From Clostridium sp. 26_22 (GTDB lineage Bacteria; Bacillota; Clostridia; TANB77; CAG-508): DNA of 64,000 bases. The notes under the pieces are model-generated. The model searched no databases. It was not told the origin of the DNA and was given only the letters and a program-made list of their open reading frames with translations. Shown one piece after another: positions 23,423 through 42,237 of the stretch. Within the stretch, counting starts at the first letter, position 1; each line of letters begins with the position of its first letter. The stretch is taken from positions 1,631-65,630 of the forward strand of contig MNRP01000037.1 in NCBI GenBank assembly GCA_001916005.1, given 5' to 3'. The position numbers and the translations under genes were made by a program.

Positions 23423-23497
23423 TGGGCTGTAGCCAAGCGGTAAGGCACCAGACTTTGACTCTGGCATGCGCAAGTTCGAATCTTGCCAGCCCAGCCA
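23423..23497 (+). tRNA. tRNA-Gln (anticodon UUG); integration target of the tandem elements
   Basis: The acceptor stem is TGGGCTG/CAGCCCA and the anticodon loop is CTTTGAC. CCA is encoded. The 3' end overlaps the 13-bp att core. Confidence 0.9.
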
Positions 23498-23499
23498 AC
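23487..23499 (+). repeat. att core copy 1 (attL of IME-1)
   Basis: CAGCCCAGCCAAC, identical to the copies at 33447-33459 and 42225-42237. Confidence 0.85.
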
Positions 23500-23513
23500 A
23501 AAATAATCGATGT

Positions 23514-23545
23514 AAATAGCTTGTATCAACAGATACAGGCTATTT
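23514..23545 (+). terminator. element-borne hairpin immediately after att core (substitute tRNA terminator)
   Basis: AAATAGCTTGTATC / GATACAGGCTATTT form a 14-bp stem (one GU). An identical structure is at 33474-33505. Confidence 0.55.
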
Positions 23546-23821
23546 ACTTATTTAAAACTAATTATAATTTTAAAAAATTTACAATATTTAATTTTCACTA
23601 GAGTTACATAGCTTTTCACGATTTTTAATTTATTTTAATTTTTAGTATTTCAAACAGATAACTCAACAATTTTAATTTTCAATACTCAACAATTTAATAT
23701 TGTTGAGTTAATATTAGCAATATAAAAGTAAAACATAAATTAGTAAAACGATATAATCAGTTTGTATCAATCATTATAAAAGAAAAATTTGTTGTGTTAT
23801 AAAACATACGTTTATATAAAT

Positions 23822-25027
23822 TTATCTTTCAAACTCTTCGATATTATTAACGTCATATAAAAGATTATTTCCTATTAAATTTTCATTAAGATAATACTGA
23901 TTGACCTTATCAAATTCTCTTTCTTTAAATTGTTCTAAAACAGAAGTATAAGTATTTAGAGTAACTGTAATATTTTTATGCCCCATTAATCTTTGAACTA
24001 CAACAGGAGCCATACCACTTTCAATGCAACGTGTTCCGAAAGTATGTCTTAAAGAGTGGCTAGAAATATCAGTAGTATTAAATTCTTGTTTGAATATTCG
24101 CTTTAGCTCATTATTTATTGTAGAACGTCTACAATATTTACTATTATTAGGCTTAAAAAGTAATTTTTCATCATTATTAATTTGCTTATTTGCTATTTTT
24201 ATTTGTTCTTTAATATAAGGATAAAGAAAGTAGGGGATAGGGATAGTTCTTTTGCCACTATATGTTTTTGTTTTATTACCCATAATAATATTTCCTTTTT
24301 CATCAGTTGTTAATGTACGAGATATATTTAATCTTTTATTTTTTAAGTCTATATCGTGTGTTGTAAGAGCTAAAGCTTCTCCGACTCTTAAGCCTGTATA
24401 CATTTGTAACAAATATACATTTCTATATTTAAATTCATCTATAGGCTTATCAACAAGCCAATTAGTAAAAGCTTCTTGTTCTTCAACCGTTAATGCACGT
24501 ACAACTTTATTTTCCCTATTGCTTTTTGGTCTAATAACATCAATCATTGGATTTTGAAGTATATATCCTTTATTCATAGCAATAGTAAAAGCTTGATTTA
24601 ATTGTTGATGAGCTTTTTCTATCATTGAATTACTTAAATTTTTTAGAGAATTTAAATAAGCTTGTAATTCATCTGTTTTTATTGTATCAATTTTTTTATT
24701 AGCAATAGGGTATTTTTCTAATCGTTTTATTGAATTTAATAATCTACCATATTGTGCAGGTCCAATTTTATTAGTACTATATTTAAGCTCCAAATTAGCT
24801 TTTAATATTTCAATTAAAGGTATTCCATTATGCTCAATATATATAGGATTTTCTTTTTGATACATAATGGTATTTAAAAAATTTTGTGCTTCTTGCTCTG
24901 TTTTAAAAGATTTTGTTTTTCTTAATCGTTTATTTTTTAATGCATCATATTCATAATATTGGGCTAGCCAATTTTTTCTTTGTTTATTGTAGTATATGGA
25001 ACCTTCACCTTTTTCTCTTGTTGCCAT
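23822..25027 (-). CDS. int: tyrosine recombinase/integrase of IME-1
   Basis: It has GLRVGEALAL (Arg), HSLRHTFGTRC (H-x-x-R) and LMGHKNITVTLNTYTSV (His...Tyr). Confidence 0.9.
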   Translation of the reverse strand: MATREKGEGSIYYNKQRKNWLAQYYEYDALKNKRLRKTKSFKTEQEAQNFLNTIMYQKENPIYIEHNGIPLIEILKANLELKYSTNKIGPAQYGRLLNSIKRLEKYPIANKKIDTIKTDELQAYLNSLKNLSNSMIEKAHQQLNQAFTIAMNKGYILQNPMIDVIRPKSNRENKVVRALTVEEQEAFTNWLVDKPIDEFKYRNVYLLQMYTGLRVGEALALTTHDIDLKNKRLNISRTLTTDEKGNIIMGNKTKTYSGKRTIPIPYFLYPYIKEQIKIANKQINNDEKLLFKPNNSKYCRRSTINNELKRIFKQEFNTTDISSHSLRHTFGTRCIESGMAPVVVQRLMGHKNITVTLNTYTSVLEQFKEREFDKVNQYYLNENLIGNNLLYDVNNIEEFER

Positions 25028-25030
25028 AAA

Positions 25031-25288
25031 TTACACCTCGCTTTCTTTTTTATGCATTTTCCATAATAAGTATGAAGCTAAAGTAACAGTTTTCCTTTTA
25101 CCAATCTGAAGAGAAGGGAAGTCTTTTTGTTTAAATAATTCATATGCTTGATTTATACCAATGCTTAAATCTTTTGAAACATCTGATACTGAAAGTGTAA
25201 TAAAGGGGTTCTTAATTTTGCTTAAATAATTTATTACTATTTGTTCTTTAGTATTATTTGTGCTAATATTTTCTTCATTAATATTCAG
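25031..25288 (-). CDS. xis: excisionase-like HTH protein of IME-1 lacking a canonical start codon
   Basis: An 85-codon frame homologous to 34980-35240 (...SVSDVSKDLSIGINQAYELFKQKDFPSLQIGKRKTVT...). At the position of the IME-2 ATG it has CTG, 9 nt after GGAGG. There is no in-frame ATG/GTG/TTG near the N-terminus. Confidence 0.5.
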   Translation of the reverse strand: MNINEENISTNNTKEQIVINYLSKIKNPFITLSVSDVSKDLSIGINQAYELFKQKDFPSLQIGKRKTVTLASYLLWKMHKKESEV

Positions 25289-25306
25289 TTTTTATACACC
25301 TCCATT

Positions 25307-25576
25307 TTATCTTTCATATTCATCATTATTAAATTTTGTATTTTTTCCTAGACATAGTCCATCTAAAAATATGCCTGCTTCATTCCATGTTTTAAAGCAA
25401 TTTTTTGAGTCTATAGAATACCAGTTTTTATCCTTTATATCTTTATCAATTAAAGCTATGGCTTTGTTATATGTATAAACATTAGAAATATTTAGTAATA
25501 TTAATTGTTTGTCAGTATCAGAAAGCATATATTTATTAAGTCCCTGTATTCTTTTTTGTAGTTCCTTTTTTGTCAT
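25307..25576 (-). CDS. hypothetical protein (IME core, homolog of 35255-35524)
   Basis: MTKKELQKRIQGLNKYMLSDTDK... The start was chosen by alignment with the IME-2 copy and the GGAG RBS. Confidence 0.6.
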   Translation of the reverse strand: MTKKELQKRIQGLNKYMLSDTDKQLILLNISNVYTYNKAIALIDKDIKDKNWYSIDSKNCFKTWNEAGIFLDGLCLGKNTKFNNDEYER

Positions 25577-26114
25577 TATTATCATCTCCATTATTTTTTA
25601 AAACTGTTGCTAAAGCTAATTGGATATTAATTAGCATGTTCATTAGTAATTTATCAAAAGGAGGGGAGTCACTATATTTGTTATTTCCGACACCTCTTTC
25701 ATATATAAATGGAAAATTTGATTTTCTTTGTTGAGGAGTTATTTTTACACTTTTAGCTGATTTACTAGTTAAATCTTTTGAAAACCATATAATATCTTCT
25801 TGTGAAATACTTTGAAATTCACGAGATTTTTTATCAATGTTAACTACGACTAAATCTCCTATAATTCGACGAAGGGGAAGAAATATATTAGGTCGCATAG
25901 GAGCTTTAGACTTATTATTATGACAAATAATAAATAGTTTCTCATATGGAACAATATCAAGATTTTTTTGTATAATTGCTTTTTTTAATTTATAGATGTT
26001 TTTAATAATTTTGACTTCTGGAGTTTGTCCAACTTTTTTGTATAAAACTCTGAGTGAATTTGTATTTTTAGTTTCTGGAATAATGTTCTTCTTTTTCAAA
26101 ATTAAACACCTCAT
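25536..26114 (-). CDS. hypothetical protein, DUF3846-like (IME core, homolog of 35521-36075)
   Basis: The pattern RVLYKKVGQ.PEVKII......LK.AI...LDI.PY...FIICH...K......N is reminiscent of DUF3846 proteins of conjugative elements. Confidence 0.5.
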   Translation of the reverse strand: MRCLILKKKNIIPETKNTNSLRVLYKKVGQTPEVKIIKNIYKLKKAIIQKNLDIVPYEKLFIICHNNKSKAPMRPNIFLPLRRIIGDLVVVNIDKKSREFQSISQEDIIWFSKDLTSKSAKSVKITPQQRKSNFPFIYERGVGNNKYSDSPPFDKLLMNMLINIQLALATVLKNNGDDNNDKKGTTKKNTGT

Positions 26115-26437
26115 TATCTTTCTTCATCGTCAATATGATTTTTTCCCTTATTTGATAGGGAACGTTTATAATCTTCTTTAGTATATTCTAAGCCGAATGC
26201 ATCATAATAAGCTCTAATAATTTCGTATGAAAGCCCATGTCTTTTGTTATTTTTTCTAGGATATACCTTCGGCCTAGCAGCATTATATCTCATACAATCT
26301 AACATATCTTTTAAATCCTCTAATAATTTAGCCTCACAGTAATATTTGGTTGTTACTTTATAAAACAAATCATAGATATGGCCAACTGTTTTTTTTGATA
26401 CTTCATTAGAAACAGAAAAATCAATTTCTTTGTCCAT
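26114..26437 (-). CDS. hypothetical protein (IME-1 only)
   Basis: It is tightly packed in the leftward operon and has no counterpart in IME-2. Confidence 0.5.
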   Translation of the reverse strand: MDKEIDFSVSNEVSKKTVGHIYDLFYKVTTKYYCEAKLLEDLKDMLDCMRYNAARPKVYPRKNNKRHGLSYEIIRAYYDAFGLEYTKEDYKRSLSNKGKNHIDDEER

Positions 26438-26454
26438 AATTTTAGCTCCTTTCT

Positions 26455-26811
26455 TTATTTTTTTAAGTTATTAGCTTTGTACAACGTCTGTAAGTTATAT
26501 TTAAAATGTCTTATTCCTTTTTCTCTTAAAGAGATAACTTTTTTCTTTTGTATTTTTAATCTTCTACAAATATCAATTAATTTACAATTTTCGACATATG
26601 TGAGATATAATACCTTTCGTTCCAGCAAAGGTACAATTTTCATTGCTAGATAATATAATTCGTTAGAAAATATATTTTCTAAATGATTTATATTAACATC
26701 TGAATTATCTATATCTTGAATTGATTTTTTATAATAGTTTTCTGAAATTATCTTTTGAATGTACTCATTAGGGAAGAGTATATATTTATTTGATTTTCTT
26801 TTATCTTTCAT
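26455..26811 (-). CDS. small sigma-70 region-4-like HTH protein
   Basis: LLERKVLYLTYVENCKLIDICRRLKIQKKKVISLREKGIRHFK resembles sigma region 4.2. The homolog is at 36059-36472. Confidence 0.55.
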   Translation of the reverse strand: MKDKRKSNKYILFPNEYIQKIISENYYKKSIQDIDNSDVNINHLENIFSNELYYLAMKIVPLLERKVLYLTYVENCKLIDICRRLKIQKKKVISLREKGIRHFKYNLQTLYKANNLKK

Positions 26812-27040
26812 AGTGAAACTCCTTAAATATATTAGACTTTCGAAAGTCTTTTAGTTCGAACTGAAATAATAATAGACTATAAAATATAACAATTGATATA
26901 AAATCGTGATAAAATCAGGTAAATTGAGATTAATTGATATAAAACGAAATAAACCGTTTTAAAAGATATATCATGATCTTTAAAACGGTTTATTTTTCTA
27001 TGTTTTAAATGCATATTAAAAAAATCTACGATAAATGGTA

Positions 27041-27757
27041 TTAGTATTCAAAATCTTCTTTATTTTCCATTTCAATATACCAAATATTTATATTTTCCAT
27101 CTTGCTAAATTCTTTATCTTGAATTTTTAAATATGCTAGCATTTCATCTGTAAAATCTAAATTATTCTTTGAAACTAAACATTTCCTAGCACTAGTATTA
27201 TATTTTGTATCTGTACAATAAAAAGCGCCTTTCATCAAATTATCAATACCATTAGAAATGTTTAAATTTATTTGAGAACATTCTAAACGCATACTTGTTG
27301 GCTTATAATTGTTAAATCTAAAAAATGCCATGAAATTGTCGGATTGCAAATAACCTTCTAAATAAATTTTTTTTGTTCTGCAATCAGCTAGTTCGATTTT
27401 ACAGTAATCAGATTTTTCTATAAGATTTATTACAAACTTACATTTATCATATTTATTTAATGTAGGGTAATAACCAATATAATAAACATATAAGGTATTA
27501 GTATTAAAAGGATTGATACTTTCTTTTTTACTAACAACTTTATCAAATTTGTTAAATAATTGATATTCTTCAATGTCTAATTCATTACATAGTAAATATA
27601 TTTCTTCTGCATTAGGTAGAAGAGTACCTTTTTCAAATCTACCAATAGTTGTTGCGCTTTTTTTAATAACTCTTCCTAGATTTTCTTGGCTTCTCCCAAT
27701 TTGTTTTCTAAATGCTTGTAATCTTCTGCCAAATTCTTTTCTATCAAACTCCGGCAT
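27041..27757 (-). CDS. XRE-family (Cro/CI-type HTH) regulator with about 170-aa C-terminal domain, first gene of leftward IME operon
   Basis: FGRRLQAFRKQIGRSQENLGRVIKKSATTIGRFEKGTLLPNAEEIYLLCNEL is a classic HTH_XRE. No S24 peptidase motif is present. Confidence 0.8.
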   Translation of the reverse strand: MPEFDRKEFGRRLQAFRKQIGRSQENLGRVIKKSATTIGRFEKGTLLPNAEEIYLLCNELDIEEYQLFNKFDKVVSKKESINPFNTNTLYVYYIGYYPTLNKYDKCKFVINLIEKSDYCKIELADCRTKKIYLEGYLQSDNFMAFFRFNNYKPTSMRLECSQINLNISNGIDNLMKGAFYCTDTKYNTSARKCLVSKNNLDFTDEMLAYLKIQDKEFSKMENINIWYIEMENKEDFEY

Positions 27758-27789
27758 AAAATCACTCCTTAAAAAATATCTACAACATT

Positions 27790-27818
27790 ATTATACCAGT
27801 TTTTTACAATCACATCAA
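27790..27818 (-). promoter_or_regulatory. leftward promoter of IME-1 (XRE operon)
   Basis: On the minus strand: TTGATG, a 17-nt spacer, then the extended -10 TGgTATAAT. Confidence 0.55.
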
Positions 27819-27839
27819 GTTATGTTAACTAAAAAAGAA

Positions 27840-27868
27840 TTGAACTTTACATAAAAGTATGATATAAT
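27840..27868 (+). promoter_or_regulatory. rightward promoter P1 of IME-1
   Basis: TTGAAC, a 17-nt spacer, then the extended -10 TGaTATAAT. It lies back-to-back with the leftward promoter, with 21 bp between the two -35 boxes. Confidence 0.6.
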
Positions 27869-27874
27869 TGTTAC

Positions 27875-28170
27875 AACTTTATAGTAAAAAGAATGGCTTA
27901 AAATCTTAATTAATCCATTCCGCAAGCGTAATGCTTGATGTTTAACTTAAAACATTCAGGCATTGCAGTTGCTTGGATTTTTTATACATACGAGATTTTA
28001 AACATTATGTGTTTTTCCGTTTGTATGAGGTTGAATTTTTACTTGAAGAATTTATTACAAAGGAGAGCACACATATGGAAGAGATGTTTGTAGGCGGACG
28101 GAAGTCCAGGTGGTTAGCCTTTCATAGGATGCCATTCAAAGACAGAGAGGGAGGGAAAATCCCTCCTTTA
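27875..28170 (+). ncRNA. candidate structured RNA-1 of the IME-1 switch region (P1 transcript, 5' domain)
   Basis: There is no ORF conserved with IME-2. The hairpin CAGGC[ATTGCAGTT]GCTTG spans 27957-27975. A loop GGAGAGCACACATA lies at 28062-28075. The GGAGGG/CCCTCC hairpin spans 28147-28169. The conserved 11-mer GGAAGTCCAGG is present. Confidence 0.5.
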
Positions 28171-28172
28171 TA

Positions 28173-28201
28173 TTGTAATTTATAAGTAATTAAGGTATAA
28201 T
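28173..28201 (+). promoter_or_regulatory. internal promoter-like site P2 of IME-1
   Basis: TTGTAA, a 17-nt spacer, then TATAAT. The same boxes and spacing are present in IME-2 although the spacer sequence differs. Confidence 0.5.
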
Positions 28202-28207
28202 AAAAAT

Positions 28208-28300
28208 AACTATTTAAACTAACTGCAATAGTTTGAATAGGGGCTATATAGCTAACAAAACACGGGAAGTCTATGTGTGTTCTCCTCCGTGTTTTGTTTT
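28208..28300 (+). ncRNA. candidate about 90-nt two-hairpin sRNA (RNA-2) or 3' domain of the P1 transcript
   Basis: SL1 (28210-28240) has an 11-bp stem with the loop AACTGCAAT. SL2 is AACAAAACACGG/CCGTGTTTTGTT followed by a U tract, and its loop contains TATGTGTGTTCTCC. Both loops are complementary to sites in RNA-1. Confidence 0.5.
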
Positions 28301-28387
28301 TTGCGTACAGTGCATTATTTTGTGAAGTTACTTAAAATTTATGAATAATATGGATAAAATTTAGTCTAAAAATAAAGAAATATACTT

Positions 28388-28433
28388 AAAATCTGCATAC
28401 TATGCAATTTTTAATGCGTAGCATGCAGATTTT
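28388..28433 (+). terminator. long hairpin plus T tract upstream of the Spo0A_C-like gene (attenuator/terminator)
   Basis: AAAATCTGCATACTATGC / GCGTAGCATGCAGATTTT give 17 pairs with one mismatch. The counterpart in IME-2 is at 38067-38112. Confidence 0.55.
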
Positions 28434-28511
28434 TATATTTTGACCAATTTACATAATCATAGTATAGTTTTAATAAATAATATAGTTTTTAACAGAAAGA
28501 GGGGAAAGAGA

Positions 28512-28865
28512 TTGCAAGATTTTGATAATAGACAATTAAATATTATAATTCGCAATAATCTTCGTTTATTAGGTATAAAATCTTGCAACAAAAGTACAAA
28601 GATGCTTGCGAAAACTATATTTTATATTAAAAGTAATAATATAATACTTGAAGATTATAAAGCTAATGAGATTTATTGTAGTATTGCAAAATTATATAAC
28701 AATACTACACCTAAGAATATAAAAGATAATATTGATTATGCTTTATCACATAGAGATGTATTAAAATCAAAGCAAAATTTTAAAAGAGTATTTAATTTTG
28801 AATATTCAGAAGATGTATTTACAAATAAGAATTTTATTGAAGAGTTTTCAAATATAATTAATTGA
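28512..28865 (+). CDS. Spo0A C-terminal (DNA-binding) domain-only protein, TTG start
   Basis: LRLLGIKSCNKSTKMLAKTI...IYCSIAKLYNTTPKNIKDNIDYALSH...FTNKNFIEEF is collinear with the Spo0A effector domain. The TTG at 28512 follows AGAGGGGAAAGAG. The ORF-track start at 28440 lies in the terminator T tract. Confidence 0.6.
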   Translation: MQDFDNRQLNIIIRNNLRLLGIKSCNKSTKMLAKTIFYIKSNNIILEDYKANEIYCSIAKLYNNTTPKNIKDNIDYALSHRDVLKSKQNFKRVFNFEYSEDVFTNKNFIEEFSNIIN

Positions 28866-29216
28866 TTGTAAATTCAACTTTATTAACTGAAATAGAAAAG
28901 CATATATAGAGGAATAAAAGTACCTAATTTTATTGTCAAAATTCTATAGAAATATGATACTCATCTTAGTAGATAAAACAAAGATAAAGAGAAATACAAC
29001 TTATTAATAAAAGAAATTTATAATATTATAGAAATTTAAATATAGCCAATATTAGAAAAAATATTTATTTTTACTTTTTTTTACCTTTTTATTCAAAAAG
29101 ACTAAATATATGATATTAATATTGTATAAAATTAGTACTTAATATTGAAACATAAATATCTTAATATGAAAGGAGGATAGAAAAATATAAATTTTTTATA
29201 AAGGGGGAATTATAGA

Positions 29217-30428
29217 ATGAAAGTATGGAAAATTTTTAGAAATATTATTAGTAGTATAATTGCTTTTATATTAATAAATAGTATGATTGTATTTTCTTAT
29301 GCAAGTGAACAAAATAAAGTAGATAAAAAGTTAGAACCTAATATAGAAGCAAAACAAGATGAAGAAATAAGAATAGAGAATAATAAAACTAGGATATTAG
29401 AACAGGAACTAGATTATTTAGTAAATATGAGAGTATATATTAAAAATGCATATACAGGAAAATATTTAGATGTAGCTGGTGGTAATATAGAAAATGGAAC
29501 TAATGTGCAACAATATGAATTTAATGGAACTAATGCACAAAAATGGGGATTATATTCTTATGGAGATGGAAATTATACAATAGTATCTGAGCTTAATAGT
29601 GATGGTACACATTATAATAGGGTTTTAGATGTAAGTAACGGATTAAATGGAGAAAATATAAATGTTCACTTATGGGAAAATAATGGTAGTGATGCACAGA
29701 AATTTTCTATTTGTAAAACAAATTATAGTACTTATGTAATATTTTCAAAAGTCTCAAATTATGAAAAATGTGTACAATTAGATGGATTCCCTTGTAATAA
29801 TAGTGCAAATGTAGATCAATATTCATGGGTAGCAACTGCTAATCAATGTTGGATTCTTGAACCTGTATATGAAACTCCTAGCTTTGGAGTTAGATATGCT
29901 AAAGATACTTATAATTTAGGAGTTCATGCGTATCCAGATATGAGAGACTGGGGGGCAGATTGTACTAATTTTGTATCTCAATGCTTATTAGCTTCTGGCA
30001 AACATTATCAAGATAATTGGAAAGTTTATCGCAAAAACGATGCTTATAGTAAACCTACTAGTGTACAACAATTGGATGAGTCATGGGAACTTTGCCAACC
30101 TAAAACCAGTCCATGGACTAGTGCCCAAGAGTTTTATAACTACTGGAAAAATCGTTCTTCATATCGTTATATAAAAGGATCAGATATTGTTGCAAATAGT
30201 TCTAATGCAGTTTTGCAAACAAACTTAAATGAGGGAGATGTAATTCAATATGCAGAGTTTAATATATTTGGTCAACCGTCACAAGTTAACCACACAATGT
30301 ATGTAACAGGAAGAAATAGTAATAACTATTATTTAACGTATCATTCGGAATCAAGACTAGATAAAAGCTTAGTTGAGATATGTAATGATTTACCAAATAA
30401 GTATTTTATATTTTACAGAATAATGTAA
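29217..30428 (+). CDS. secreted ricin-B-lectin plus amidase-like (Cys) domain protein
   Basis: It has a signal peptide, Q-x-W-type trefoil repeats (NAQKWGL, DAQKFSI, NQCWIL), and a C-terminal GADCTNFVSQCLLASG as in putative amidase (Amidase_6-like) domains. Confidence 0.6.
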   Translation: MKVWKIFRNIISSIIAFILINSMIVFSYASEQNKVDKKLEPNIEAKQDEEIRIENNKTRILEQELDYLVNMRVYIKNAYTGKYLDVAGGNIENGTNVQQYEFNGTNAQKWGLYSYGDGNYTIVSELNSDGTHYNRVLDVSNGLNGENINVHLWENNGSDAQKFSICKTNYSTYVIFSKVSNYEKCVQLDGFPCNNSANVDQYSWVATANQCWILEPVYETPSFGVRYAKDTYNLGVHAYPDMRDWGADCTNFVSQCLLASGKHYQDNWKVYRKNDAYSKPTSVQQLDESWELCQPKTSPWTSAQEFYNYWKNRSSYRYIKGSDIVANSSNAVLQTNLNEGDVIQYAEFNIFGQPSQVNHTMYVTGRNSNNYYLTYHSESRLDKSLVEICNDLPNKYFIFYRIM

Positions 30429-34976: not shown

Positions 34977-34979
34977 AAA

Positions 34980-35240: not shown

Positions 35241-35254
35241 TAAAACACCTCCAA

Positions 35255-35524: not shown

Positions 35525-36075
35525 TTTTTATCATCTCCATTATTCTTTAAAATCTTAGCTAAAACTAGGTTTAAATGAATTAATATCTCAAATAAAATTT
35601 GTTCAAAATTCTTAGACGTAAAATATCCATTATTTTTAAAAGCTTTTTCATAAACATCTGTAATAGGTATTACTTTTTTTATATTAGATGATTTAATATC
35701 AACTTTTTTAGGAGATTTATTGTTAATATCTTTTGAATACCATATAATATCTTCTTGAGAAAGACTTTTAAATTCTCGTTCTTTTTTGTCTATATTTACA
35801 ACAATAAGATCTCCTAGTATTCTTTTAAGTGGTAAAAATATATTAGGAAACATATTTGAATTTGATTTTTTGCTATGACATATAATAAAAATTTTTTCGT
35901 AAGGAATAATATCTAAACTTCTTTCAATAATTGCTTTCTTCAATTTGTAAACATCACTAATAATTTTAACCTCTGAAGGCTGACCTACTTTTTTATATAA
36001 AACTCTAATAGGATTTTTACTTACATCATTAGTTTTAGAAGATAACAGATGTTTATTTTTAATTCTTTTTATCAT
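35521..36075 (-). CDS. hypothetical protein, DUF3846-like (IME core)
   Basis: Homolog of 25536-26114. Its stop overlaps the next start (ATGA). Confidence 0.5.
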   Translation of the reverse strand: MIKRIKNKHLLSSKTNDVSKNPIRVLYKKVGQPSEVKIISDVYKLKKAIIERSLDIIPYEKIFIICHSKKSNSNMFPNIFLPLKRILGDLIVVNIDKKEREFKSLSQEDIIWYSKDINNKSPKKVDIKSSNIKKVIPITDVYEKAFKNNGYFTSKNFEQILFEILIHLNLVLAKILKNNGDDKK

Positions 36076-36472
36076 TTTTTGAACCTTTCTTTAATTTTTC
36101 AGATTTATATAAAATTTCTAGGTTATGCTTAAAATGATTTATTGCTTTACTTCTTAATGAGATTACTTCATTTTTTCCTAATTTTAATTTTTTACAAATA
36201 TCATTTAATCTGCAATTTTCAATATAAGATAGGTATAGTACTTTTCTTTCAAGTAATGGAACTATTTTCATTGCTAGATAATAAGTTTCATTAGTAAAAA
36301 TATTTTCTAAATGATTAATGTTTACATCTGCATTATCTATATCTTGCATAGACTTTTGATAATAATTATTTTCAATTATTTTAATAACTTTCTCATTATC
36401 AATTATTGTTTCAATAATTGATTGAAAAGTTTTTTTGTTTTTTGATAGATTTAATATTTTTTCATTTTTCAT
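36059..36472 (-). CDS. small sigma-70 region-4-like HTH protein
   Basis: LLERKVLYLSYIENCRLNDICKKLKLGKNEVISLRSKAINHFK. Homolog of 26455-26811. Confidence 0.55.
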   Translation of the reverse strand: MKNEKILNLSKNKKTFQSIIETIIDNEKVIKIIENNYYQKSMQDIDNADVNINHLENIFTNETYYLAMKIVPLLERKVLYLSYIENCRLNDICKKLKLGKNEVISLRSKAINHFKHNLEILYKSEKLKKGSKNDKKN

Positions 36473-36744
36473 TTTTTTAAACCTCTTTTCAAAAAAGATT
36501 AGATTTCTAGAAATCGTGTAATTGTTCGAACTGGTTATATAATATAGTGGGAATGAGATAAATTGTATTTTTGTAAAGAAATTAAATAAAAAGTATAAAG
36601 ATGTAATAGTTTGTAAGAAAATTATAAAAAGAAAAAGCTATATAAATAGCTCTAATAGTGACGTTAAAAGATTTGTTCACAGAATTTACGTGAATAAAAA
36701 ATAACACTTAAAATAGATTATACTTTAAGTGTTATTTTTTATTT

Positions 36745-37473
36745 TTATTCATTTTCAAAAGCATATGTATCTGTTATATCAAGATATAAAATATTATGCT
36801 TATTTAGAGTTTCTTTTTCAACATCTGAAACTTTTAGTTTTTCTAATAATTCGTCTGTAAAGTCTACATCATCTTTAGAGAGAATACATTTTCTAATACT
36901 AGGAATATATTCACCATTGGTGCAATGAAAAGTTCCTAACATTAGCTTATTTGTTCCTCTAGCTATATTTACTATGATATGTGAAAGCTCAAAACGTAAA
37001 TTGTTTTCCTTATAATTTTCAAAGACAAATACTGAAATGTGTTGGTCAGCTTGTAAATATCCCGATAGGTAAATATAATCTTCTTTATAGTCCATAAAAT
37101 CCACTTTGCATAAATCTGGCTTTTGAATGATTTTTAATCGAAATTTACCTTTTCCATATTTTTTTGATTTTGGATAATATGCAATGTAATATAAATAAAG
37201 TATATCTGCATTAAAAGGGTTTCTTTCAGTTTCAATATTATTTATCTTTTTAGCACTATTAAATAGTTCATATTCATAAATACCTAATTCATTGCAAATT
37301 AAATATATTTGTTCTGCATTAGGTATAATTTCGCCAGTTTCATATCTAGCAATAGTTGCAGGTGTTTTATTTAGTAACATTGCTAGATTTTCTTGACTTA
37401 AACCTTTAGCTTTTCTAAACTTCCTTATATTGTTTCCAAACTCTTTTTTATTAAAGTTAGACATATTATTCAC
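36745..37473 (-). CDS. XRE-family regulator with C-terminal domain (IME-2)
   Basis: The HTH is FGNNIRKFRKAKGLSQENLAMLLNKTPATIARYETGEIIPNAEQIYLICNEL. It is clearly more diverged from its IME-1 counterpart than int or mob are. Confidence 0.8.
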   Translation of the reverse strand: MNNMSNFNKKEFGNNIRKFRKAKGLSQENLAMLLNKTPATIARYETGEIIPNAEQIYLICNELGIYEYELFNSAKKINNIETERNPFNADILYLYYIAYYPKSKKYGKGKFRLKIIQKPDLCKVDFMDYKEDYIYLSGYLQADQHISVFVFENYKENNLRFELSHIIVNIARGTNKLMLGTFHCTNGEYIPSIRKCILSKDDVDFTDELLEKLKVSDVEKETLNKHNILYLDITDTYAFENE

Positions 37474-37489
37474 CTACTTTACATAACAA

Positions 37490-37518
37490 AATTATAACAT
37501 ATTATTACTATATAATCA
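37490..37518 (-). promoter_or_regulatory. leftward promoter of IME-2
   Basis: On the minus strand: TTGATT, a 17-nt spacer, then TATAAT. It sits at the same position relative to the XRE start as in IME-1. Confidence 0.55.
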
Positions 37519-37545
37519 ATATAACTGTTGTAGACACCAGTAAAA

Positions 37546-37574
37546 TTGCCATTTTTAACAAAATATAGTATAAT
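37546..37574 (+). promoter_or_regulatory. rightward promoter P1 of IME-2
   Basis: TTGCCA, a 17-nt spacer, then TATAAT. Confidence 0.55.
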
Positions 37575-37580
37575 AAAAAT

Positions 37581-37845
37581 ACTATATAGTAGAAAAGATG
37601 GCTTTGAGCTATTTATCAAGTTGTAATACTTGATTCGATTATGATAATTGTTTCAAGTATTGCAACTACTTGGACTTTAGGATACAACATTTGTTATCCT
37701 CTTTTATCATAATCGTTTTTAACTTATAGAATATCTATTGGGGAAGGAGAACAACAAATGGGAAGTCAAGAATTTTGTATTGACGGTGGAAGTCCAGGAG
37801 CCTCGAACCGTCTATCTGAAAGAGGAGGGTAAGATTTTCCCTCCT
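37581..37845 (+). ncRNA. candidate structured RNA-1 of the IME-2 switch region
   Basis: The hairpin CAAGT[ATTGCAACT]ACTTG spans 37654-37672. GGAGAACAACAAATGG lies at 37746-37761. The GACGGT/ACCGTC helix encloses GGAAGTCCAGG. The GGAGGG/CCCTCC hairpin spans 37824-37844. Confidence 0.5.
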
Positions 37846-37858
37846 AACATCTTATATA

Positions 37859-37887
37859 TTGCAAATACTATAAATATTTAGTATAAT
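37859..37887 (+). promoter_or_regulatory. internal promoter-like site P2 of IME-2
   Basis: TTGCAA, a 17-nt spacer, then TATAAT. Confidence 0.5.
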
Positions 37888-37893
37888 TAAGTT

Positions 37894-37978
37894 AGTTAAT
37901 CTAAATTAGTTGCAATAGTTTTGGATTAATTATATAACGCAGGGGGCTTTTCCATTTGTTGTTCTCCTGTGTTTTTTA
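37894..37978 (+). ncRNA. candidate about 85-nt two-hairpin sRNA (RNA-2) or 3' domain of the P1 transcript (IME-2)
   Basis: SL1 carries the loop AGTTGCAAT (37908-37916). SL2 is AACGCAGG/CCTGTGTT followed by a T6 run, and its loop carries CCATTTGTTGTTCTCC (37952-37967). Confidence 0.5.
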
Positions 37979-38066
37979 ATTTCGTTAAACGTAATATTTG
38001 GTGATTTTACTTTACAAATAGTTATAACTTATAGCTACTTATAAAAAAAGTATCTAAAAAAGGTAC

Positions 38067-38112
38067 AAAACTTGCATAATATGCAAATTTCATTGCTTAT
38101 TATGTAAGTTTT
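38067..38112 (+). terminator. long hairpin plus T tract upstream of the Spo0A_C-like gene (IME-2)
   Basis: AAAACTTGCATAATATGCAA / TTGCTTATTATGTAAGTTTT span 20 positions with one mismatch and one GU. ATTTTTTT follows. Confidence 0.6.
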
Positions 38113-38190
38113 ATTTTTTTGAATTTTTTACATAAAGTTGCTATATTTTTATTATAAAATAATATTTCATAATGGTTGGGGGACGTTTAA

Positions 38191-38601
38191 TTGTTAAATG
38201 ATTATTTAAAAACAAATAATTTAATAAATTCTAAAAACTTAATTCTAATTTATAATATATTAAGAGATTTAGGTTTAAATACAACACTTAAAGGAACAAA
38301 GCTTTTAAATAAATCAATTCAAATTGTTATAAATAGTGAGGTTGAATTTATAGTTTTAGAAAATGTTTATAATAAACTCGCATTAAAATGTGTAGGCTTT
38401 AATTCAGCTCAAATTAGAAATTCGATTAAATATGCAATAGATACTCGAAATGAAGAAAAATCTAAAGTAAATTTTGAAAATATATTTGGATATCAATATG
38501 ATAGTTATTATTTTACTAATAAAACGCTTATAGAAGAAATTACAAGAGTTGTAAAATATAAAAATAGCATAATTATGCACTATTCAAAAATTTGTAGGTA
38601 A
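38191..38601 (+). CDS. Spo0A C-terminal domain-only protein, TTG start (IME-2)
   Basis: ILRDLGLNTTLKGTKLLNKSIQIV...VYNKLALKCVGFNSAQIRNSIKYAIDTRN...FTNKTLIEEITRVV is collinear with the Spo0A effector domain. Confidence 0.6.
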   Translation: MLNDYLKTNNLINSKNLILIYNILRDLGLNTTLKGTKLLNKSIQIVINSEVEFIVLENVYNKLALKCVGFNSAQIRNSIKYAIDTRNEEKSKVNFENIFGYQYDSYYFTNKTLIEEITRVVKYKNSIIMHYSKICR

Positions 38602-38826
38602 AAACGAGAAAACTAATAAAAATTCATATGTAAATATATTAGTGAGATAAAATTGTCAGTAAAAATTCATAAGTTAGTTTTTATTAAAATATTGACATTA
38701 TCTGTAAAAATATGTAAAATATTAGTATACTTCTCTATAGAAGTAGTTTTTCTATATTATGGAGGACACTCTCTATAATAACGATGAGGAATTGGCATTT
38801 GTAAACTGGCAGAAAGGATGTAATTT

Positions 38827-39249
38827 ATGAGTAGAAATATTATTAGGCGGGCATTGGCTTGTTTTTTAGCAGTAATTATGATTGCTGGAACTACAATGAC
38901 AACTTTTGCTTCAGAAAAAGTAGAAACTGTTACACCAAAACAGACAACTGAAATGACTGCAAGAGGATATGGAAGTGCGGAATTTCCTTCCCAAAAGTCT
39001 GTACTCATTTCTGGTTCTGTTACTAAAGTTGCATATACAGCTGTATGTACAGGAAAAACTGGTGTCGTGATTTTACGTTTTAGAAATAGGACCACAGGAG
39101 AAAAACGAGACCATACATTCATTTGTAACAATGTATACCATAACAGTTCGAGTTTAGGTATCAACCCTTTTTCAGAAGGCTGGTGGGATATCGAGTATGT
39201 TATGAGTACTTGTGACAATTTTGTAACAATTTTTATGAATTTTAGCTAA
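38827..39249 (+). CDS. small secreted protein of unknown function (G+C-richer cargo of IME-2)
   Basis: The signal peptide is MSRNIIRRALACFLAVIMIAGTTMTTFASE and the mature part is about 110 aa with 3 Cys. A promoter-like TTGACA-17-TAAAAT lies at 38692-38720. Confidence 0.55.
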   Translation: MSRNIIRRALACFLAVIMIAGTTMTTFASEKVETVTPKQTTEMTARGYGSAEFPSQKSVLISGSVTKVAYTAVCTGKTGVVILRFRNRTTGEKRDHTFICNNVYHNSSSLGINPFSEGWWDIEYVMSTCDNFVTIFMNFS

Positions 39250-39376
39250 TAAAATCGTTTTAACAAATTTGTAACTTTTTAATGTAATGTCATAGCTAAT
39301 TGCAAATGTCAATTCTATCTAAAGTGGAGGTATTACGTCCACTTTAGCATCTATATATAAAAGGAGGATTGATACT

Positions 39377-39994
39377 ATGAAAAAGAAAATTTATATCATA
39401 GTCGCAGCTATAATAGTTATTATTTCAATTTTACTAATTGGTATGATATTTAATGTTATTAGAAACAATTCTATTATGCAAAAAACTTACGAAAGTAGTA
39501 AAAAACTTAATAATTCTATAAAAAATTATTATTATGAAAAAAAATCTGAATTATCTGAAGGAGAAACTAGAACAACTGAATATAAAATATATAATTATGA
39601 AAATAAATATTTAATAAAAGAGTATTATAATGAAGATGGTATTATTACAACAGAATGGGTGGATAAAAATATACCTGAATATCTATCTATTAACGAGAAA
39701 ACAAAAGAAGAAGCTCAAGAAATAAAAATGAAAGAATTTGACAAAGAATATGAAGAAGCTTTATTTTTTAAAACTTTAGATACTATAGGATATGGAAAGA
39801 TACTAGCAAACAATATATTAAAGCCTATAAAAATAGAAAACAATTGTTATGTTATTGATTATGAAGATACAACATTTTATGTTAATACTAATACAGGAAT
39901 TATATCAAAAGTTTTCTATGCAAATAATAATGTGTTATGTACATATAAATTAAAAAATAATTCTGTTATTGAAGATGAAGTTATAAAGCCATAA
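39377..39994 (+). CDS. membrane-anchored protein of unknown function
   Basis: AAGGAGG RBS. It has a single N-terminal TM helix and a K/E/N/Y-rich ectodomain. Confidence 0.5.
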   Translation: MKKKIYIIVAAIIVIISILLIGMIFNVIRNNSIMQKTYESSKKLNNSIKNYYYEKKSELSEGETRTTEYKIYNYENKYLIKEYYNEDGIITTEWVDKNIPEYLSINEKTKEEAQEIKMKEFDKEYEEALFFKTLDTIGYGKILANNILKPIKIENNCYVIDYEDTTFYVNTNTGIISKVFYANNNVLCTYKLKNNSVIEDEVIKP

Positions 39995-40024
39995 TAAAAG
40001 AACGAGCATTTTAAGCTCGTTTCT

Positions 40025-40978
40025 TTACTTTTCAAAATATTCAACAAAATTATTTACTAAACGTTTAAATCTACCAATGGGAAAGTTAAATAGATTTTTA
40101 ACAACTTCAAAAGTTCTTTCAATATAATTTTTTAACTTTAAATTTTCTCTTTTTAATTCTTCATTTTCATTTTTTAAGTAAGTATTTTCATTTCGTAAGT
40201 TTTCAATATTTTCAATAGCAGTATAAGACTTTGCTAATTGTATTTTTAATTTATTTGCATAGCTAATTAATTCATTATTTTGTTGAATTAATAAAGAGGT
40301 ATTTTTAGTTTCTATAGGTTGTATTTGTTCTTGCTCTAATTCATATTTTATATTATCATAGTTTGTTAGTTGCTTTAATTTTTCAGTACTTAAATGTTCA
40401 ATGTTTCTTGTTTTTCCTCTTTCTAAATTGAATTCATTATTTTTTATATATTGATAGAAACTATCTTGTAATTCTTGATAACTATTTTTTCCTTTCCAAT
40501 ATTCGCTACAGGCAATTTTATTTAGTTTATTTCCACTTTTCTTATCTAATTTTTGGACAACAGGTACAAATACTAAATGTAAGTGAGGAGTGCTTTCGTC
40601 CATATGAACTTTAGCAGATAATATGTATTTTTCTCCTAAATTCTTATAATTTGCAACAAAGTTATAAGCAGTTTGAAAGTATCTTTTTGTTTCATGTTCT
40701 CCGATTGAGTCAAAAAATTCTTTATCAGATGTAATAATAAATTCACATACAAGATTAGTATAACTTGTAATTCTACATTTTAAATCATTTTCAGCTATTA
40801 ATTGTTTAATAGCTTTTGAATAGGTAGTATTACATTGTTTAATTGAATAATTATTAATAGAATTGTTTTTATTAATATCTTTGTTAGAGTAATTAGTATT
40901 TTTTCTTTCGTTATGTTTATATAATCCAGGTAAATTTTCTCTTTTATAATTGGCATTTCTAATTATTGCATAACTCAT
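40025..40978 (-). CDS. mob: MobV-family relaxase (IME-2)
   Basis: It has the same motifs as 31969-32922 (MSYAIIRNANYKR, HMDESTPHLHLVFVPV). Confidence 0.85.
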   Translation of the reverse strand: MSYAIIRNANYKRENLPGLYKHNERKNTNYSNKDINKNNSINNYSIKQCNTTYSKAIKQLIAENDLKCRITSYTNLVCEFIITSDKEFFDSIGEHETKRYFQTAYNFVANYKNLGEKYILSAKVHMDESTPHLHLVFVPVVQKLDKKSGNKLNKIACSEYWKGKNSYQELQDSFYQYIKNNEFNLERGKTRNIEHLSTEKLKQLTNYDNIKYELEQEQIQPIETKNTSLLIQQNNELISYANKLKIQLAKSYTAIENIENLRNENTYLKNENEELKRENLKLKNYIERTFEVVKNLFNFPIGRFKRLVNNFVEYFEK

Positions 40979-41064
40979 TTTTATATATCCTTTTTTACTA
41001 GATAGCCTTCGAAGGCTTACAAAAATAAATACCTCCTTTGAATTTCTTAATAGAAAACTTTTAC

Positions 41065-41130
41065 GAAGTTCTAACACACTAGAACTTCACGGAAGTTCTG
41101 TGTGATTAAGGACAACATAGTTTTCCTTAA
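41065..41130. other. oriT-like overlapping inverted repeats of IME-2
   Basis: GAAGTTCTA (41065), TAGAACTTC (41080), GAAGTTCT (41092), GTGTG and TTAAGGA...TCCTTAA. It is nearly identical to the IME-1 copy. Confidence 0.55.
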
Positions 41131-41143
41131 TAAACCTTTTATT

Positions 41144-41361
41144 GCACGATTGAATATTATATTTATTAAAATAATTTAATAAATACCATAAAATAATAAT
41201 TAATTATTTTATTTAATATTCTAATCGTGTTATAAAAACCTGACCCACTTTAGCATCAAAGATTACTAGTGGGTACCCCATAACCTTTTTGCTTGCACAA
41301 AAAAATATTCGCTGTATGCTCATATTTTTATAAATAGATTTTGCATATAGCAAAATCTATT
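41144..41361. other. structured non-coding block (IME-2 copy of 33087-33308)
   Basis: It has the same flanking IR, the ACCCACT/AGTGGGT hairpin, and AATAGATTTTGC/GCAAAATCTATT with a different loop (ATATA versus TAAAT). Confidence 0.3.
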
Positions 41362-41528
41362 ATCTAGCATTGGTTAAAGTAGTATTTTATTTCTATTCAT
41401 TTGTAGTAAGTTATATAATTTTATTTTATAAATTCAACTGGCAAAAATAAATATTATTAAAACAATAGATTTTAATAAACAAGAATGGTATAATAATATT
41501 GTATAAATATTTTATGGAGGTAATTAAT

Positions 41529-41771
41529 ATGTCTATAGAAAAGCAAAAATTATTTAATGAAATCGAAACATTACCAGATGAACTTACAAATCAAGTTATT
41601 GATTTTATTGAGTATTTAAAATTATCTTATGTAGATGCAGAAGCTCCAGAAAATGTAACAATAAAAAGCAAAAAAGATTTAAAAGAAAAGTTACAAAAAG
41701 GATTAGATGATGTAAGAGAGAACAAAGTATTTTCACTAGATGAAGCCTTTGCAAAAATAGATAATATGTAA
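41529..41771 (+). CDS. putative type II antitoxin
   Basis: GGAGG RBS, then ATG 41529. It is a small acidic protein (IETLPDELTNQVIDFIEYL...GLDDVRENKVFSLDEAF) directly upstream of a ParE/RelE-like gene. Confidence 0.55.
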   Translation: MSIEKQKLFNEIETLPDELTNQVIDFIEYLKLSYVDAEAPENVTIKSKKDLKEKLQKGLDDVRENKVFSLDEAFAKIDNM

Positions 41772-41790
41772 GAAAGCTAGGAGTGAATTT

Positions 41791-42114
41791 ATGAAAAGAT
41801 ATATAGTAGAAATTTCTAAAACTGCAGAGCAAGATTTAGAAGATATTATTTTATATTTACGACATAGCTTAGCAGGAGAAATTATTGCTGACAAGTATAA
41901 AATATTATTTAAACAAAAATTAAAAGAGTTAGAGAATATAGCAGGAAGTATGCCTATTTTAAGCGAGGAATTGACAGGTCATAAAGACATTAGAAAAATT
42001 AATGTTAGAAATTATATTGTATTCTATATAATCGATAAAATTAATTCCAAAGCTTTAGTTCTTAGAATAGGTCACGCTTTTATGGACTGGGAAAAATATT
42101 TAAGAGATGAATAA
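41791..42114 (+). CDS. ParE/RelE-family type II toxin
   Basis: YIVEISKTAEQDLEDIILYL...IRKINVRNYIVFYIID...LVLRIGHAFMD is the typical ParE/RelE pattern. Confidence 0.7.
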   Translation: MKRYIVEISKTAEQDLEDIILYLRHSLAGEIIADKYKILFKQKLKELENIAGSMPILSEELTGHKDIRKINVRNYIVFYIIDKINSKALVLRIGHAFMDWEKYLRDE

Positions 42115-42224
42115 TTTTATATAATTATTTTAAATTTTTAGTAATTTATTTTCATTTCTAATTTTCAAACAACTAACTCAACAGATATAAGCAAAAATCT
42201 TGGTAAAGGCTGAAGTAGTCTGCT

Positions 42225-42237
42225 CAGCCCAGCCAAC
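42225..42237 (+). repeat. att core copy 3 (attR of IME-2)
   Basis: CAGCCCAGCCAAC. Confidence 0.85.

Follow-up and report, generated by a model that had tools for sequence, protein, structure and literature searches.

Two related integrative mobilizable elements, very probably accreted in tandem at the 3' end of a tRNA-Gln gene of Clostridium sp. 26_22

A stretch of 64,000 nucleotides (nt) from Clostridium sp. 26_22 (assembly GCA_001916005.1, contig MNRP01000037.1, positions 1,631 to 65,630 of the forward strand), here called the window, carries 18.7 kb of DNA at the 3' end of a tRNA-Gln gene. This region very probably consists of two separate, related integrative mobilizable elements (IMEs) which have accreted in tandem. 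The elements, IME-1 and IME-2, stand head to tail and have one common backbone. Three direct repeats bound them, each unit was found alone at the same site in other assemblies, and the unoccupied site was found as well.

Repeats and boundaries of the two elements

The 13-bp sequence CAGCCCAGCCAAC is present in exactly three copies in the window, at 23487-99, 33447-59 and 42225-37, as an earlier note made from the letters of this DNA had reported; none was obtained in 100 shuffles. Since ARAGORN and Rfam place a tRNA-Gln(UUG) with an encoded CCA at 23423-23497, the repeat is composed of parts of the tRNA 3' end (3' acceptor strand, discriminator and CCA, together the last 11 nt of the gene) and two further nucleotides. 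The features that define the attachment (att) sites and the element ends are listed below.

23423..23497, plus strand: tRNA-Gln(UUG) with encoded CCA, integration target and left half of attB (ARAGORN; Rfam RF00005, 69.2 bits)
23487..23499, plus strand: attL core, first copy of the repeat (exact match)
23500..33459, no strand: IME-1, 9,960 bp with one core copy counted (repeats and blastn homology)
23512..23547, plus strand: element-borne hairpin, 16-bp stem with T-rich tail, directly 3' of tRNA-Gln (-22.1 kcal/mol)
33447..33459, plus strand: attI core, second copy of the repeat, at the junction of the IME-1 right end and the IME-2 left end (exact match)
33460..42237, no strand: IME-2, 8,778 bp with one core copy counted (repeats and blastn homology)
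42225..42237, plus strand: attR core, third copy of the repeat (exact match)
42242..42278, plus strand: native tRNA-Gln terminator hairpin and T run (hairpin 42242-42274, 11-bp stem, -14.5 kcal/mol)

On comparing the two elements by blastn, the homologous blocks were all found to be collinear. They comprise the part from int to the DUF3846-like gene (23501-26067 and 33461-36022, 80.6%), the sigma-like gene (26458-26770 and 36086-36398, 77%), the XRE regulator (27116-27748 and 36823-37455, 66%), mob with its upstream region (31964-33374 and 40020-41427, 91%) and the last 114 bp (33346-33459 and 42124-42237, 83%). The first and last of these blocks bear out the homology described earlier after copies 1 and 2 and before copies 2 and 3, and the element sizes estimated then, about 9.96 and 8.78 kb, agree with the lengths given above.

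The same hairpin follows copies 1 and 2, as had also been noted, with a stem of 16 bp and not of 14 bp. Its copy in IME-2 lies at 33472-33507, with 16-nt arms identical to those of IME-1, and it is kept 3' of tRNA-Gln in related loci (L036, L038, L043, L045 and L008). This hairpin is probably a replacement terminator for the tRNA. The hairpin at 42242 is a different one and is found directly 3' of tRNA-Gln in the empty sites described below (L047, G022/L005), which supports the earlier suggestion that the hairpin and T tract after copy 3 are the original tRNA terminator.

Occupancy of the site in public assemblies

Metagenomes were scanned with the core and the right flank, which gave eight contigs. 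In L047, tRNA-Gln is followed directly by the hairpin from 42238 onward and the right flank; this is the empty site in the form that had been predicted. The same arrangement, tRNA-Gln and then the homologous hairpin, was observed in the representative genome of a different species of the genus (G022; also L005). IME-1 was found alone, at 96% identity and adjoining the right flank, in L053 (OCHJ01000009). The contig L052 from the right-flank scan is the same as the window, L054 carries the unrelated element described below, and the remaining contigs of that scan are variants with IME-1-type right ends. By exact-protein look-up of the IME-1 response regulator and integrase, scaffold_8 of ERZ28616820 (L088/L107) was reached, in which IME-1 stands alone at 99.985% identity between the same left and right flanks on one contig. 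In L080, L082 and L084, tRNA-Gln with the left flank of the window is followed directly by IME-2 (99.9-99.98%). IME-2 alone, at 99.98%, is present on NODE_13_length_202769 (L080 and L093), where the ParE end in L093 adjoins the right flank of the window about 8.77 kb from the tRNA end in L080.

Near-identical copies were also found in other hosts, an indirect sign of horizontal spread. IME-2 lies beside a different tRNA-Gln allele with different flanking genes in L085 and L097 (99.9-99.96%), and IME-1 has a different right flank in L089 (99.9%). In L097 the attR core of IME-2 reads CAGCCCAACCAGTG, its right half keeping the host's own variant. On a contig of 1.14 Mb (ERZ28758135 contig_2310, L087/L101), IME-2 occupies a secondary site that is not a tRNA gene (99.9%), with attL reading GGT followed by CAGCCCAGCCAAC and attR reading GCT followed by CTGCCCAACCATTTTC. 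The core at this secondary site is degenerate (attR CTGCCCAACCA), and the insertion appears to split an open reading frame (ORF).

Junctions of another type were recovered as well. In L090 (Logan ERR11474062_43335, 4400-4856) the right end of IME-1 runs through the core directly into a left end of IME-1, and the 308 nt after the core are 99.3% identical to the left end of IME-1 as against 82.7% to that of IME-2. A second junction of right end, core and IME-1 left end is present in L103 (ERZ824598 NODE_3961). Such junctions are expected of an excised circle (attP-type) or of a self-tandem.

Because the attR cores vary with the host (L097, L087/L101), the repeats are recombination products and not ancestral sequence. 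The earlier note had named two outcomes that would count against accretion, namely that the 18.7 kb are ancestral core without empty sites in related strains, and that the repeats are not recombination junctions. Neither holds: empty sites exist, and both the variant attR cores and the junction in L090 point to recombination at the repeats.

It is proposed that each IME inserts by tyrosine-integrase recombination between the 13-bp core of its attP and the tRNA-Gln 3' end, which has the same sequence. Integration would restore the tRNA 3' end, and the element would bring a new terminator hairpin for the tRNA. Entry of one IME into an att site of the other would then give the order tRNA-Gln/attL - IME-1 - attI - IME-2 - attR; attI does not reveal which of them came first, since both possible routes end in one and the same junction.

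The same tRNA-Gln also receives an unrelated integrative element of about 10.7 kb, which was observed in L054 (ODHZ01002734.1, 500-11260), in G006 (L011) and in G009 (L007). Its integrase of 392 amino acids (aa) is 25% identical, its tRNA repeat is 50 bp long (window 23450-23499), and it swaps the T-arm of the expressed tRNA for its own variant, CTAGTTCGAATCTAG. Hence, this tRNA-Gln gene is a hotspot for at least two element families.

Integration and excision

The genes and sites on which integration and excision would depend are the following.

23649..23668, plus strand: arm-type repeat TTCAAACA(A/G)(C/A)TAACT(C/A)AACA (20-nt motif search)
23822..25027, minus strand: IME-1 tyrosine integrase (Int), 401 aa (PF00589, 1.3e-28; weak Arm-DNA-bind_4)
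25031..25288, minus strand: IME-1 Xis-like gene without an ATG, GTG or TTG start; the frame opens AAA CTG after TAA, with GGAGGTG upstream
33774..34976, minus strand: IME-2 tyrosine integrase, 400 aa (85% aa identity to IME-1 Int)
34980..35240, minus strand: IME-2 Xis-like protein, 86 aa (winged-helix AlphaFold2 model, position, conservation)

The nearest solved structure to Int is that of the Tn1549 integrase, 6EN0 (E 6e-20, residues 88-363), with which the blocks TGLRVGE, HSLRHTF and GHKNITVTLNTY align at the corresponding positions. Int thus carries, by its sequence, the R...HxxR...H/W...Y signature of tyrosine recombinases, and the individual residues would have the roles of their aligned counterparts in Tn1549 Int. 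Further copies of the 20-nt arm motif TTCAAACAACTAACTCAACA are located at 33386-33405, 33609-33628 and 42164-42183, which makes four matches against 0.04 expected. One copy is present per left arm and one per right arm, and short inverted copies are found in both left arms. Arm-type integrase sites would be laid out in this way, and the arm domain of Int may bind the motif. Judging by the attR cores that vary with the host, strand exchange can be placed in the left ~7 nt of the core, within about C(A/T)GCCCA.

The Xis-like gene lies directly upstream of int throughout the element family. The AlphaFold2 model of its product, derived from seven family members, is a winged helix with a pLDDT of 80; the Foldseek matches of top probability were MerR-like RacA 5I44 (0.99) and 7LWR (0.97), the DNA-binding domain of a viral packaging protein, every E-value being above 0.06. 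Position, conservation and fold type are what the Xis-like label reflects, and a role in excision is consistent with them. Excision would use Int and this small winged-helix protein, with the crossover in the left ~7 nt of the core. The start region of the IME-1-type xis gene reads GGAGGTGTATAAAAACTG. The CTG configuration is present together with an intact frame in G192/L036 (L036 9690-9760), an element in another genome which is 93% identical. Since the configuration and the open frame are kept in so diverged a copy, it is suggested that a non-canonical CTG or ATT start is tolerated here, rather than that the gene has recently decayed.

Mobilisation

The relaxase genes and the putative origins of transfer (oriT) are found at the far end of each element.

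31969..32922, minus strand: IME-1 MobV relaxase, 317 aa from the ATG at 32922 (Mob_Pre 1.2e-40; NF041497 MobV, 130 bits against a cut-off of 100)
33003..33046, minus strand: IME-1 oriT core CACACAGAACTTC-CGT-GAAGTTCTAGTGTG/TTAGAAC, with the predicted nick between the complements of 33019 and 33018
40025..40978, minus strand: IME-2 MobV relaxase, 317 aa (86% identical to IME-1 Mob; Mob_Pre in public gene calls)
41059..41102, minus strand: IME-2 oriT core, with the predicted nick between the complements of 41075 and 41074

Mob matches the pMV158 relaxase MobM (4LVI) with an E-value of 2e-29, and H22 and the HxDE..PHxH motif are conserved. In the alignment LYKHTER stands opposite AFKHNER, and VHMDESTPHLHL opposite VHLDESTPHMHM. 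On these sequence grounds Mob is a MOBV relaxase with the MobM-type catalytic histidine and metal-binding motif, and its best plasmid match among the MobV proteins in PLSDB is at most 36% identical. The start of mob is an internal ATG (32922 and 40978), and public gene calls also give 317 aa. A longer mob ORF of 350 aa with a GTG start was rejected as an artefact: the extension (32923-33021 and 40979-41077) reaches the inverted repeat of oriT with its 5' end and takes in a hairpin, AGCCTTCGAAGGCT, which is conserved and lies just before the ATG.

The sequence CACACAGAACTTC-CGT-GAAGTTCTAGTGTGTTAGAAC is common to eight of nine related elements, where it lies about 80-120 nt upstream of mob, and its arms show compensatory changes. 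The site bound and cut by MobM in pMV158 reads 5'-AAGtaTAGTGTG/TTATAC-3' (PMC5863519). Because the oriT of the elements matches this site (TAGTGTG/TTA), MobV is predicted to cut the minus strand directly 3' of GTGTG, at 33019/33018 in IME-1 and at 41075/41074 in IME-2. The score above the NF041497 cut-off and the pMV158-like oriT both uphold the earlier description of a MobV relaxase with oriT-like repeats.

All element ORFs of at least 86 aa were scanned with Pfam, and most of them also with NCBIfam and PHROGs; no coupling-protein, type IV secretion system (T4SS), VirB4, VirD4 or TcpA family was found among them. Elements of 8.8-10 kb leave no room for a set of T4SS genes. By their sequence the two elements are canonical IMEs (PMC5704250), each having its own integrase and att repeats and a relaxase with oriT, and lacking a T4SS and a coupling protein; the T4SS, VirB4-type ATPase and coupling protein that would make an integrative and conjugative element (ICE) are absent from their ORFs. 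The view that the elements are mobilizable and not conjugative is thus retained. Once an element has been excised, its MobV would cut the mob-coding strand of the pMV158-type oriT at GTGTG/TT, and the single strand would leave the cell by way of a helper conjugative element's coupling protein and T4SS, a helper being needed because the IMEs encode neither.

In the host genome, a T4SS-type cluster at C19:187664-200016 encodes a VirB4-like ATPase, a membrane protein with a T4SS_pilin domain, an M23 peptidase, a protein of 857 aa, which is repeat-rich and resembles a surface adhesin by sequence alone, and a VirD4-type coupling protein. A second VirD4-type coupling protein, seemingly without its N-terminal part, is encoded at C29:12409-14413. 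The C19 cluster and the C29 protein are candidate helpers, or may themselves be decaying. An AAA_10 match on C9 was rejected as a helper, as it lies between gyrA and gyrB in the origin region.

Backbone genes and their divergence

The remaining backbone genes are given below; the non-coding regions between them are listed in the next section.

25307..26437, minus strand: IME-1 ORF of 94/89 aa, DUF3846-like ORF (192/187 aa) and 107-aa ORF absent from IME-2 (DUF3846 3.7e-4, below cut-off)
26455..26811, minus strand: IME-1 sigma-70 region 4-like small protein, 118 aa (sub-threshold: TIGR02937 4.8e-4, Sigma70_r4_2 0.14)
27041..27757, minus strand: IME-1 XRE regulator, 238 aa, a helix-turn-helix with a C-terminal part of about 170 aa (HTH_3 2.7e-7)
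28440..28865, plus strand: IME-1 Spo0A_C-only protein, for which gene callers use a 117-aa form from 28512 (PF08769 5.8e-7, 29.9 bits against a cut-off of 25)
35255..37473, minus strand: IME-2 89-aa ORF, DUF3846-like (184 aa), sigma-r4-like (137 aa) and XRE (242/239 aa) proteins (ORF and profile scans)
38191..38601, plus strand: IME-2 Spo0A_C-only protein, 136 aa (PF08769 3.9e-9)

From the centre to the left end, the leftward genes are XRE, sigma-r4-like, the 107-aa ORF (IME-1 only), DUF3846-like, the 89/94-aa ORF, Xis-like and Int. To the right there follow a non-coding region of about 600 nt, the Spo0A_C-only gene and the cargo, and the leftward MobV gene stands at the far end. The Pfam results agree with the gene content given for both elements in the earlier note. 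Two of its labels, 'xis' and 'sigma-r4-like', rely on weak or structural evidence. The sigma-r4-like protein had no score above threshold in Pfam, NCBIfam or PHROGs. As in IME-1 and IME-2, regulators of the XRE type and small ones resembling sigma region 4 stand upstream in Tn916 (orf7 and orf9). A literature search for Spo0A_C-only proteins on mobile elements gave nothing relevant.

The amino acid identity between the two elements falls from Mob (86%) and Int (85%) through Xis (75%), the 94/89-aa ORF (67%), the sigma-like protein (66%) and the DUF3846-like protein (56%) to XRE (46%) and the Spo0A_C-only protein (31%). The gradient described earlier, with Int and Mob much closer than the XRE regulators, was therefore recovered, though 'nearly identical' was too strong a term for the former two. 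All backbone ORFs except the IME-1 xis are intact in both elements. IME-1 and IME-2 have att and Int specificity and the Mob/oriT type in common. They are probably heteroimmune, and hence able to co-reside, because their control modules have diverged (XRE, the Spo0A_C-only protein and the RNA pairing sequences described below).

A non-coding RNA module

Between the XRE and Spo0A_C-only genes, each element has a putative RNA switch.

27840..28433, plus strand: IME-1 non-coding switch (promoters, complementarities, folding)
37546..38112, plus strand: IME-2 copy of the switch with its own complementary sequences (same evidence)

In IME-1 the order of parts is a promoter P1, a hairpin loop A1, a small ORF with a Shine-Dalgarno sequence (SD) and AUG (A2), a terminator, a second promoter P2, an RNA of ~110 nt and a long hairpin. 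Loop B1 and terminator region B2 of the P2 RNA are complementary to A1 and A2. Both window copies form much more stable folds than shuffles do, with z values of -9.45 for the IME-1 switch and -8.77 for that of IME-2. Both window copies were compared with L060, L065, L066, L068, L071, L075, L076 and G149:C1 (L059+L063); distant copies were located through synteny between the XRE and Spo0A_C genes, as blastn of the switch against related loci returned near-identical copies only. Two promoters on the same strand (P1/P2, TTGnnn-17-TATAAT) are present in all 10 elements scanned, of 11 compared. Two exact complementarities in the same order were found in 8-10 of the 11 elements, with letters that differ in every element, and 2.2% of dinucleotide shuffles contain such a pair. 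The first joins the hairpin loop ATTGNNNN(T) with a loop ~250-275 nt downstream, and the second joins the SD and AUG of the small, non-conserved ORF with the terminator loop and 3' arm ~205-240 nt downstream. A search of 20000-45000 against Rfam (E <= 1) gave only three tRNAs and chance hairpin matches, and no known RNA family in the switch.

In the mechanism envisaged, the P2 RNA, made from its own promoter on the same strand and downstream of its target, would pair twice with the leader RNA, once loop to loop and once through its terminator region with the SD and AUG; the conserved Spo0A_C-only protein encoded downstream would be the regulated output. Immunity RNAs with which it may be compared are the c4 RNA in P1/P7 and the CI RNA in P4/phiR73. 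It is tentatively proposed, as a possibility on the doubtful side, that the IME family is controlled by such an element-specific RNA immunity, which together with the diverged XRE would set specificity and make IME-1 and IME-2 heteroimmune. If true, this would explain the stacking of two elements of the same Int specificity at one tRNA. The RNA-based control module is the more unusual feature of these elements.

Distribution and recombined forms of the family

Members of the family abound in assemblies from the human gut: 2,347 indexed blocks of public assemblies contain the exact IME-2 Int, and 1,826 the exact ParE. Integrase relatives were found in 32 of 151 genomes of the host family and in 20 of 50 genera; those with names come from metagenome-assembled genomes (MAGs) of uncultured Clostridium or Clostridia, and one matching contig bears the label human gut metagenome. 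Many members of the element family are located at tRNA-Met and others at tRNA-Gln. In another genus, the contig G149:C1 (L059+L063; 6398-26700) has the tRNA-Met 3' end CGTCGCTACCA three times, at 6398, 16486 and 26688. These cores bound two elements of the same family of ~10.1 kb each, with a hairpin and T run after each core; in these elements mob lies directly beside xis-int, in a different gene order. This is an independent tandem of the IME family.

Recombined and decayed forms were observed as well, and mosaics are common. L081, L083 and L086 combine the exact IME-2 integrase and left end with a backbone of the IME-1 type. G192:C14 (L055) is a fusion of an IME-1-like left half with cargo like that of IME-2; its mob is truncated, and it has lost attR along with 3.5 kb of flank. 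G191 has only a remnant with a truncated int. One tRNA-Gln site is now seen empty, with IME-1 alone, with IME-2 alone and with the tandem, and besides these there are mosaics, fusions in decay, an insertion at a secondary site and a junction of the circle type; these states form a natural series for the accretion, recombination and decay of IMEs.

Alternative explanations

Several observations weigh against the reading of the region as two mobilizable elements in tandem. The exact junction of IME-1 and IME-2 was not found in another assembly, and the genome is a MAG of 57 contigs. Excision of IME-1 may be inefficient, its xis being without a canonical start codon; the Xis-like protein has no match in Pfam, NCBIfam or PHROGs, and Foldseek returned no match to its model at E <= 0.001. 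For the whole family, mobilisation is a prediction from sequence. The coupling-protein gene of the C19 cluster is split into two or three ORFs, so that this cluster is no more than a candidate for a working helper.

What doubt remains concerns chiefly the exact tandem junction, which is known from this one MAG assembly; in it, two co-occurring strains, one with IME-1 and one with IME-2 at the same tRNA-Gln, could have been joined as a chimera; both single-occupancy strains are indeed present in gut metagenomes. A chimera is unlikely, because the right end of single-occupancy IME-1 and the left end of single-occupancy IME-2 share only the 13-bp core across the junction, less than the usual assembly k-mer, and the junction (33406-33480) is element-specific on either side. 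Tandems or right-end/left-end junctions of the family were moreover found in independent assemblies (G149:C1, L090, L103), and the mosaics and fusions (G192, L081/83/86) are the products expected of recombination between co-resident copies. It was rejected on the shared 13 bp and is regarded as very improbable. An equally slight chance is given to a single composite of 18.7 kb that moves only as a unit, with the middle repeat as a relic. The transfer of accreted tandems of a cis-mobilizable element (CIME) and an ICE is documented (review PMC5704250), and three identical cores make attL x attR recombination formally possible; the halves are separable, however, each being found alone at 99.98% between the same flanks, each has its own int, xis, mob and oriT, and the composite is absent from the other assemblies examined. 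The single composite was therefore rejected too.

There is a small chance that one or both elements, IME-1 being the likelier, are decaying towards cis-mobilizable relics and are no longer mobile. The start of the IME-1 xis would fit such decay, as would the truncated mob and lost attR of G192 and the truncated int of G191. Against this stand the intact state of all other backbone ORFs in both elements, the presence of IME-1 at 99.9% in a different host flank (L089) and in the right-end/left-end junction of L090, and the retention of the CTG configuration with an open frame in the 93% copy. That the elements are phage satellites or cryptic prophage remnants was considered, as Int, Xis and an XRE repressor with divergent promoters resemble a phage switch and PHROGs matches were obtained for the XRE and sigma-like proteins (regulators only). 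With no capsid, terminase, portal, primase or packaging match in Pfam, NCBIfam or PHROGs, a MobV relaxase with its cognate oriT in the elements, and no match in an IMG/VR scan with the core and left-end junction, this origin was rejected as scarcely credible. Two IMEs accreted in tandem remain the preferred reading.

Comparison with known systems

Canonical IMEs of Firmicutes, such as IMESag-rpsI of Streptococcus agalactiae (PMC5704250, PMC5357655, PMC5090054), resemble IME-1 and IME-2 in size (8-10 kb), in their ends, one with Int and its small excision partner and the other with MobV and oriT, in targeting the 3' end of a tRNA or housekeeping gene, which a direct repeat restores, and in carrying toxin-antitoxin cargo with neither coupling protein nor T4SS. 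The present elements differ in their tRNA-Gln target, in their hosts, which are uncultured low-GC gut Clostridia, and in the distance of Mob from plasmid MobV proteins (at most 36% in PLSDB). In the literature searched, the control module (XRE, two-RNA switch, Spo0A_C-only, sigma-r4-like and DUF3846-like) was not described for IMEs of the IMESag-rpsI type.

Tandem accretion of IMEs is already known (PMC5704250, PMC5357655). As here, known tandems have the order attL-E1-attI-E2-attR with three direct repeats, and single, tandem and empty forms coexist (PMC5704250). In functional tandems the integrases of the two partners are reported to be, as a rule, only distantly related, unless one partner has decayed (PMC5704250); the two partners described here, in contrast, are closely related (Int 85%) and both seem complete. 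The novelty lies in the family itself, in its hosts and prevalence, and in the regulatory module. The case is an ordinary but well-documented one, of value as documentation rather than as a surprise.

The relaxase and oriT resemble those of pMV158, the MOBV1 prototype (4LVI; PMC5863519, PMC3105389), in His22 and HxDE..PHxH, in the location of oriT just upstream of mob, and in an inverted repeat that ends TAGTGTG/TTA with the nick dinucleotide G/T. Unlike the rolling-circle plasmid pMV158, the elements are integrative and their nick is predicted from sequence, and the arms of the inverted repeat read GAACTTC...GAAGTTC as against ACTTTAT...ATAAAGT. The integrases of Tn1549 and Tn916 (6EN0, 6EMY, 6EMZ) likewise have an N-terminal arm-binding region and a small xis gene preceding int. 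Those elements have low specificity and heteroduplex coupling sequences, whereas IME-1 and IME-2 have a fixed 13-bp core equal to the tRNA 3' end and no conjugation genes. The hosts are uncultured Clostridia with small genomes, in which no genetics of mobile elements is available; as tools for such organisms, the predicted att, oriT and Int/Xis parts could be of use.

Cargo

Cargo of the family comprises secreted cell-wall-type enzymes, Spo0A-like regulators and a toxin-antitoxin module, which in the two elements are distributed as follows.

29217..31787, plus strand: IME-1 cargo, a secreted RicinB-lectin and Amidase_6 protein (403 aa), a membrane protein (185/172 aa) and a REC and Spo0A_C response regulator (238 aa) (Pfam)
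38827..39994, plus strand: IME-2 cargo, a secreted protein of 140 aa and a membrane protein of 205 aa, with no family in Pfam, NCBIfam or PHROGs scans
41499..42114, plus strand: IME-2 type II toxin-antitoxin pair, antitoxin (80-90 aa, weak DUF2281) and ParE toxin (107 aa; ParE_toxin 1.7e-11)

The toxin of IME-2 matches PF05016 with 45 bits against a cut-off of 23 and has a small antitoxin ORF upstream, so that the pair fits, by sequence, a type II toxin-antitoxin system of the ParE/RelE kind. Relative to IME-1 it is an insertion between oriT and attR. The REC and Spo0A_C regulator of IME-1 has chromosomal relatives in its own genome, at C45:5298-6014 (51%) and C19:232435-233148 (34%).

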